Part shown: positions 9,597 through 9,862 of the stretch, piece by piece
Layout of the letters: every line of letters starts with the position of its first letter
Numbering within the stretch: the stretch's first letter is position 1
DNA from: a virus
Virus genome (UHGV): UHGV-0068104
Strand: one strand, 5' to 3'
DNA: 14,368 nt
Program-made: the position numbers and the translations under genes
The notes under the pieces: generated by a model
What the model saw: only the letters and a program-made list of their open reading frames with translations
What the model was told of the DNA's origin: nothing
The model's database searches: none

Positions 9597-9610
9597 GTCT
9601 GATAAGGAGG

Positions 9611-9632
9611 ACGGGAGGCGTGCGCCTCCCGT
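9611..9632 (+). promoter_or_regulatory. Perfect 22-bp palindrome (RNA hairpin) downstream of capsid gene, not followed by a T-run
   Basis: ACGGGAGGCG (9611-9620) TG CGCCTCCCGT (9623-9632); preceded by a strong AAGGAGG (9604-9610); no downstream U-tract, so not a canonical intrinsic terminator. Confidence 0.5.
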
Positions 9633-9640
9633 AACAGGTT

Positions 9641-9862
9641 ATGGCAAAGATCCGATATCTGCAGGGCACGCATGATGCCCGGGTCGGGGATATCCGTGAT
9701 GTGGCACAGCCGTGTGCGGAGGTGCTGGTTCGCCTGGGAAAGGCGGAGTACATCACGGTGCGACGTCCGGCAGGTCAGAAAAAGAAACGTGATGCGGAGC
9801 ATGGCGAATGTGGAACCTTTTACGGCGAACCCGAAAAAACCAGAAATCAGGACGTGACGTAA
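9641..9862 (+). CDS. Hypothetical small protein between capsid and portal genes (uncertain)
   Basis: 73-aa ORF, non-repetitive composition; no classical SD directly upstream but AAGGAGG lies 30 nt upstream separated by the hairpin; 3' end overlaps the portal start by 55 nt in another frame. Confidence 0.3.
   Translation: MAKIRYLQGTHDARVGDIRDVAQPCAEVLVRLGKAEYITVRRPAGQKKKRDAEHGECGTFYGEPEKTRNQDVT

Follow-up and report, generated by a model that had tools for sequence, protein, structure and literature searches.

At the junction between the major capsid gene and the following small gene of a lambdoid prophage, a strong Shine-Dalgarno (SD) sequence, AAGGAGG, is separated from the start codon of the small gene, ATG 9641, by a stable hairpin that is conserved, with compensatory changes, among related phages. 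We propose that the folded hairpin brings AAGGAGG to a working distance of ATG 9641, and that it has a second role in stabilizing the capsid message, with a terminator function in some relatives. The bridging reading has a comparative and thermodynamic basis, and it is the one we favor, with moderate confidence.

The window, as we refer to the whole stretch of 14,368 nucleotides analyzed here, is similar to 92 phage records (90–99 % identity), without exception lambdoid Stx-converting E. coli phages, or related ones, of the BP-4795/2851/YYZ-2008 type; it is the late region of a lambdoid Stx prophage of the BP-4795/2851 type. The same region is found in 1244 of 5426 complete E. coli genomes, in up to 7 places per genome. 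The gene order of the window was assigned with Pfam and PHROGs, and the features relevant to the argument are as follows.

5374–5937: small terminase (Pfam/PHROGs)
5934–7595: large terminase (Pfam/PHROGs)
7659–9596, plus strand: prohead-protease/major-capsid fusion gene, 645 aa, GTG start (Pfam Peptidase_S78 and Phage_capsid; phrog_617)
9594–9605, plus strand: capsid stop TGA (9594–9596) followed by in-frame GTC TGA TAA, read from the sequence
9604–9610, plus strand: strong SD AAGGAGG, abutting the hairpin, 30 nt upstream of ATG 9641; anti-SD duplex of −12.2 kcal/mol
9611–9632, plus strand: hairpin with 5' arm 9611–9619, loop GUGC 9620–9623 and 3' arm 9624–9632; −17.8 kcal/mol
9620–9634, plus strand: four-codon mini-ORF GTG CGC CTC CCG TAA (V-R-L-P-stop; TAA 9632–9634), considered incidental
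9633–9640, plus strand: 8-nt tail from the hairpin to the ATG, with no usable SD and no T-run
9641–9862, plus strand: small conserved gene, 73 aa, with an N-domain in codons 1–40 and a basic tail predicted to be disordered (phrog_829, E 3e-39)
9796–9799, plus strand: the portal gene's own SD, GGAG, 8 nt before ATG 9808, read from the sequence; GCGGRG is kept in relatives
9806–9808, plus strand: GAA codon at the ancestral stop position, from the junction comparison of 23 relatives
9808–11172, plus strand: portal gene, 454 aa (Pfam Phage_portal, 5e-81; conserved N-terminus MWN(P/L)(F/L)RR)
Downstream of the portal gene: a 299-aa ORF, then head-tail connector genes and the major tail gene (Pfam/PHROGs)

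The gene preceding the junction, named a capsid gene in the preliminary description of this DNA, does contain a capsid domain, but the Pfam matches identify it as a fusion of a prohead protease with the major capsid protein. Its start was placed at GTG 7659 on the basis of homology, the N-terminus MTLKR being common to the relatives; this GTG overlaps an out-of-frame ATG (7657) that is directly followed by TGA (ATGTGA). On the other side of the junction, the portal gene and the next ORF are joined by an ATGA overlap (11169–11172). The latter ORF (11169–12068) encodes 299 aa in the window, 461 aa in BP-4795 (ORF59; L001 4770–6155) and 355–442 aa in other relatives, so that the window copy seems to be internally deleted. 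A single profile, phrog_2271 (859 positions), covers both the portal and the ORF that follows it, and NCBI PGAP labels the two as one 'frameshifted' portal gene in NZ_CP182308.

The SD, the palindrome, GTG 9620, ATG 9641 and the portal ATG 9808 are all present where the preliminary description had placed them. The element described there as a 22-bp perfect hairpin has a perfect stem, but it is a 22-nt palindrome, ACGGGAGGCG-TG-CGCCTCCCGT, and because a 2-nt loop is impossible, its folded form has nine base pairs and a loop of 4 nt; the pair probabilities are 0.92–1.0 in a 160-nt context. The intergenic gap that accommodates this structure is 44 nt long. Of the four codons that close the capsid frame, TGA GTC TGA TAA, three are stops, and the last one overlaps the SD (TAAGGAGG). 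The SD is only partly accessible in the predicted ensemble (unpaired probability of 0.3–0.9), which counts against the bridging reading. As had been pointed out earlier, its linear distance to ATG 9641, at 30 nt, is too large. There is no other SD at a normal distance from this ATG: the only resemblance to one in the tail AACAGGTT is AGG at positions −5 to −3, with −3.7 kcal/mol as against −12.2 kcal/mol for the upstream SD.

This is the sole perfect hairpin of at least 9 bp within the 14.4-kb window. Given that dinucleotide shuffles yield 0.34 such hairpins per window, with at least one in 24.5 % of the shuffles, the hairpin by itself is weak evidence; what gives it weight is that it lies in the 44-nt gap and that relatives conserve it with covarying pairs. 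The 91-nt region as a whole does not show unusual stability (z = −1.1), and only the local hairpin is stable. Two other junctions of the window contain hairpins as well. At 7620–7661, a terminator-like hairpin, GAACCGC-TGCG-GCGGTTT followed by TTTTATTTTC (hairpin at 7620–7637 plus T-run), is followed by AGGAGG and the capsid GTG 7659; at 13565–13604, the hairpin CCCGC-CGCGT-GCGGG followed by TTTTTTATTA (hairpin at 13565–13579 plus T-run) precedes AGGAGG and the major tail ATG 13602. Two highly expressed genes, those for the capsid and the major tail protein, are thus preceded by the ordinary order of hairpin, SD and start, and the inverted order at 9604–9641 is specific to that junction.

Several other assignments of the hairpin were considered and rejected. 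The terminator scan does not call the window hairpin, which has a GC-rich stem followed by the tail AACAGGTT that lacks a T-run, and a terminator role of the window copy was discarded on account of the absent T-run. An RNase III site was dismissed because a stem of 9 bp is too short for one. The Rfam search produced just a sub-threshold match to sroE, on the minus strand (17.8 bits compared with a gathering score of 51, E 0.28), which was taken as chance. A function of the minus strand is not indicated: the ORFs there are short and unconserved, and no T-run comes after the reverse-complement hairpin.

For comparative analysis, a pattern scan based on the capsid alignment yielded 80 species-level loci with the same capsid fusion across Proteobacteria. 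The compared set consists of 59 species-level relatives, namely 23 loci with a detectable small-ORF family, mostly from Enterobacterales and including the window, and 36 more distant loci. Loci from IMG/VR, all of them 95–99 % identical, are informative for allele variation alone. In four loci reached via distant homologs of the small ORF, the gene order is unchanged.

A GC-rich hairpin is located just 3' of the capsid stop in nearly all of the 59 relatives, regardless of the position of the SD, and is often followed by a T-rich tail, in keeping with the earlier suggestion that this structure could stabilize the 3' end of the capsid mRNA. In the 23-locus group, the layout is a stop codon, 0–13 nt, GGAGG or GGAG, a GC-rich hairpin of 6–10 bp (in most cases GGCGGGG-GAAA-CCCCGCC), 6–11 nt without an SD, and ATG. 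The SD lies upstream of the hairpin in 17 of the 23 loci when a duplex energy of −6 kcal/mol or lower is demanded and in 19 when the motif is used, whereas only 2 loci have an SD in the tail (L096 and L117, with the ordinary layout) and 21 have none there; the median tail length is 7 nt. Altogether, the split layout seen in the window recurs in 19–21 of the 23 Enterobacterales relatives. Two loci, L083 and L084, have SD-like bases within the stem, and the tail is T-rich in some of the relatives with the small gene (L083, L084, L089 and L095–L097).

The 36 distant loci, from Pseudomonas, Rhizobiales, Sphingomonadales and others, present a different picture: the SD is upstream of the hairpin in none of them and in the tail in 28, the usual order being hairpin, SD, ATG. 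The median tail length there is 22 nt, and UUCG loops and T-rich tails are frequent. Profile–profile comparison of the small genes of the two groups (hhalign probability of 92.7 %, E 4e-7) indicates that the gene downstream of the hairpin is probably the same in both, in which case one gene occurs with two ribosome-site layouts. As judged from the two groups, the association of the hairpin with the 3' end of the capsid gene is old, and it is the Enterobacterales branch that changed the side on which the SD lies. Nearly the same GGAGGGCGGGG string is present in 15 of the 23 loci, so part of the conservation reflects shared ancestry; the 23-locus group comprises approximately 4–5 independent lineages. 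In many alphaproteobacterial relatives, the capsid hairpin is followed by a second type of small ORF, MKSQSYMTRALRARDPRY…LRAEYQ..GKRP..GWD..TLKAKIAEAK (L112, L113, L115, L119–L121, L129, L132, L138, L151 and L163).

The conservation of the stem is apparent at the level of individual base pairs. In an alignment of 28 sequences, 92 % of the cells pair, compared with 48–62 % when the partner columns are slid by 1–3 positions, and RNAalifold independently gives the same helix. Two stem pairs change on both sides (GC 22, AU 3, GU 2 in one; GC 19, AU 9 in the other), and none of 500 shuffles matched the observed number of double changes. Among the E. coli alleles, the closing pair 9611/9632 occurs as A-U, G-U and G-C; the further allele changes in the stem are from G-C to G-U, along with one mismatch in allele a28. 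The spacing is conserved as well. In the 19 loci with an upstream SD, the linear distance from the SD to the ATG is 23–32 nt (mean 26.1; 30 nt in the window), and looping-out of the hairpin brings it to 6–14 nt (mean 8.1, mostly 6–9; 8 nt in the window). The flanks and the tail are free to diverge in sequence, while the SD, the stem and the length of the tail are retained. With regard to a split ribosome-binding site, then, the linear spacing is beyond the working range in the window and in the 19 relatives, the hairpin lies wholly inside the spacer and leaves a working distance when looped out, and both layout and structure are conserved with compensatory changes. The looping-out of the spacer, one of the possibilities raised in the preliminary description, is in agreement with these data.

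The comparison of relatives also bears on an alternative under which the hairpin is an element of the capsid message alone, either a partial terminator or a barrier to 3'-exonucleases, and the small gene is expressed by reinitiation 44 nt downstream or is weakly translated; the upstream SD would merely hold the post-termination ribosome, and the geometry of the hairpin would be irrelevant. It accords with this explanation that essentially all 59 relatives have a hairpin after the capsid stop, wherever their SD lies, that many of these structures resemble terminators in having a T-rich tail and a loop of UUCG or GAAA, that the SD is found 0–13 nt after the stop or even overlaps it, as TAAGGAG, in the Erwinia and Pantoea loci, and that the intergenic gap is short (30–46 nt) in the relatives. 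Since capsid translation ends 8 nt before the SD, the terminating ribosomes could start again at ATG 9641 with no contribution of hairpin geometry. However, this explanation does not account for a tail that is kept at 6–9 nt while its sequence is free, or for the lack of a tail SD in 21 of the 23 loci, and the window copy has no T-run. Late transcription in lambdoid phages is Q-antiterminated, which makes termination an unlikely role for the window hairpin. A stabilizer role is compatible with the bridging explanation and is included in it. We regard a function confined to the capsid message as the main rival reading, less likely than bridging.

A further alternative, put forward in the preliminary description, involves the mini-ORF: ribosomes would bind AAGGAGG, start at GTG 9620, melt the hairpin, stop at 9632–9634 and reinitiate at ATG 9641. 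The spacing from the SD to this GTG is canonical (9 nt), and the stop of the mini-ORF lies 6 nt before the ATG (not 7 nt, as originally given); moreover, L085 has a loop ATG at a similar spacing and L083 a loop GTG. Natural variation is hard to reconcile with such a scheme, because neither the start nor the stop is conserved. The start is absent from E. coli alleles a2, a20, a24, a25 and a28, GTG 9620 being GCG in allele a2 (7 loci), where the TAA is lost too, and GAG in others, and the loops of at least 15 relatives are GAAA, GAGA or TTCG, with no start codon. The loop start of L085 is in frame with the small gene without an intervening stop and that of L083 is out of frame, so there is no common mini-ORF, and the GTG is placed within the 4-nt loop of a hairpin of −17.8 kcal/mol. 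With no conserved counterpart in the relatives, the mini-ORF is treated as incidental, and we rejected reinitiation through it on grounds of conservation as very improbable. In L085 (2973–3030), the in-frame loop ATG has led gene callers to add 7 residues to the protein (P0052, 88 aa); the conserved start is the downstream ATG.

Returning to the bridging of the SD and ATG 9641 by the hairpin, the observations can be arranged into the following scenario. The post-capsid hairpin is an old conserved RNA element of the whole head module that in distant relatives looks like an intrinsic terminator or a 3'-end stabilizer and probably helps to hold the capsid message in excess over the downstream genes. 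In the Enterobacterales branch, the intergenic region has shrunk, and the SD of the following gene is now on the 5' side of the hairpin. In the unfolded RNA, AAGGAGG would be too far from ATG 9641 for initiation, and folding of the 22-nt hairpin would reduce the effective distance to about 8 nt. The hairpin is thus likely to be part of a split ribosome-binding site, with the small gene translated only from the folded RNA, and the portal gene would initiate at 9808 from its own GGAG.

The small ORF itself is a real, conserved gene. Its residues 1–63 align with positions 1–63 of the 63-position profile phrog_829, a phage protein of unknown function; public annotations call it a 'hypothetical protein', and Pfam gave no match for the ORF. 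A word-indexed protein search recovered only E. coli copies with at least 74 % identity, and scanning of genome contigs with peptide patterns of the small ORF gave no match, but an exhaustive profile search detected distant relatives of the protein at 33–47 % identity. These share the N-terminal 40 residues, with the consensus xKIRYLQxTHDAxxGDIRxVxxxxAxVLVLLGxAEY; beyond residue 40, there is a variable basic tail or, in two distant relatives, a HeH/SAP DNA-binding domain. Among 23 species-level copies, pN in the N-domain is 0.29 and pS is 0.71. AlphaFold predicts residues 1–40 with a pLDDT of about 90, as strand, strand, helix and strand, and a disordered tail. The top Foldseek matches of the model are almost all to the N-terminal domain of ribosomal protein L9 (rmsd of approximately 1.0 Å over 40 residues, 28–32 % identity, probability 1.0), the small size of the domain limiting the E value to about 0.1, and a profile search of the small protein against PDB sequences gave a weak match (E 0.29). 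The predicted N-domain clearly resembles that of L9; this is a likeness of fold and not a claim of descent. A link to B. subtilis YqbF (PDB 2hjq) is not claimed, the Foldseek match being weak (rank 42, rmsd 6 Å). Five database proteins of this family (P0032, P0034, P0042, P0048 and P0050) are frameshifted after approximately residue 46, near the A-rich CAGAAAAAGAAACG (window 9776–9790), and continue in the third frame (…MANVEPFTANPKK…). The likely cause is sequencing error or indels in homopolymers, and such versions point to weak constraint on the basic tail.

The overlap of the small gene with the portal gene was initially seen as part of a control device, a view to which the relatives lend no support. 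The portal start is fixed at 9808 by the conserved N-terminus, MWNPFRR in the window, and 3 of the 4 bases of its SD GGAG are predicted to be unpaired. In 13 of the 23 relatives, the small ORF has 55–58 codons and ends with TGATG or TAATG on the portal ATG. Where these relatives have GGC TAA TG or GGC TGA TG, the window reads GGC GAA TG, so the 55-nt overlap is explained by mutation of the ancestral stop to GAA, by which the ORF gained 17 codons up to TAA 9860–9862. The ORFs of L082, L083 and L084 likewise extend beyond the portal ATG, with the sense codon at this position differing among the three, and the seemingly conserved motif 'ECGT..GEKK' is what the portal MWNPF gives in another reading frame. 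Within the overlap, the alleles show 0 synonymous and 3 non-synonymous changes in the frame of the small ORF and 2 and 1, respectively, in the portal frame, although the numbers are small. These data weigh against programmed −1 frameshifting in the overlap, by which the small ORF would be joined to the portal to give a portal protein with an extended N-terminus. The portal frame is indeed −1 relative to the small ORF, and an A6 run (9834–9839) lies within the overlap, but the run reads CCC GAA AAA ACC in the small-ORF frame and lacks the X XXY YYZ pattern of a slippery heptamer. In most relatives, the two genes overlap by no more than TGATG or TAATG, and in three their frame relation is +1 or 0. 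In the absence of a slippery heptamer and with the overlap not conserved, we discarded frameshifting into the portal, to which we assign a negligible probability.

A post-capsid hairpin, a small conserved gene in the head module and an overlap caused by a lost stop are each unremarkable. If the hairpin bridges the SD and the AUG, it constitutes a natural split ribosome-binding site outside T4-like phages, of which, to our knowledge, there are few cases. About a quarter of the complete E. coli genomes (the 1244 of 5426 given above) would then carry such a device, as would prophages of many Enterobacterales, and the bridging of SDs by hairpins would be a solution that recurs where phage genes are tightly packed but has been overlooked. 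Its evolutionary history can be read from the same gene, which has the ordinary layout in distant relatives and the split one in Enterobacterales. There is also a practical side, in that an SD-AUG distance of 30 nt is treated as 'no SD' by gene callers and ribosome-site calculators. The junction also bears on how Stx-type prophages set the expression of the genes downstream of the capsid.

In several respects, the junction can be compared with known systems. Terminator or stabilizer hairpins are found just after the major capsid genes of phages, an example being T-phi after gene 10 of T7. The window hairpin is likewise GC-rich, comes directly after the structural gene with the highest expression and is kept throughout the module; unlike hairpins of the T-phi type, it has no T-run, lies 8 nt from the next start codon and has the SD on its far side. 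The TGATG and TAATG junctions between the small gene and the portal gene of the relatives, as well as the ATGA junction between the portal gene and the next ORF in the window, resemble those of stop-start coupling, whereas at the small-gene junction of the window the stop has become GAA and the overlap is 55 nt instead of 1 nt.

The term 'split ribosome binding site' has been applied to E. coli thrS, in which, according to the discussion in PMC3936740 of the work by Sacerdot et al., a hairpin located upstream of a normally spaced SD and AUG serves as an autoregulation operator. There, as proposed here, the ribosome accommodates a folded hairpin between two single-stranded binding segments, but in the window the hairpin is between the SD and the AUG. 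The closest parallel is with genes 38 and 25 of phage T4, whose split, or 'accommodated', ribosome-binding sites contain a hairpin that shortens the SD-AUG distance from 22 to 5 nt and from 27 to 11 nt, respectively (Nivinskas et al. 1999; Malys and Nivinskas 2009, as reviewed in PMC3014915). In the account given by that review, mutations that destabilize the hairpin lower translation, and the layout is confined to close T-even phages. Measured against this account, the window has the SD at a linear distance that is too large (30 nt, compared with 22 and 27 nt in T4), a stable hairpin wholly within the spacer and an effective spacing in the working range (about 8 nt, compared with 5 and 11 nt); in both systems, the arrangement is found at an intercistronic junction of late structural genes and in one sub-lineage, with distant relatives being ordinary. 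It is possible, and we put this forward tentatively, that the junction represents a second, independent natural lineage of split ribosome-binding sites, in which an ancient post-capsid hairpin was co-opted into the SD-AUG spacer, so that one fold would both mark the end of the capsid message and license the synthesis of a small L9-N-domain-like protein. Unlike the T4 cases, the window belongs to an unrelated lambdoid siphovirus prophage and concerns an unrelated gene, and its hairpin matches the position of a much older terminator-like hairpin that follows the capsid gene and may thus serve two purposes.
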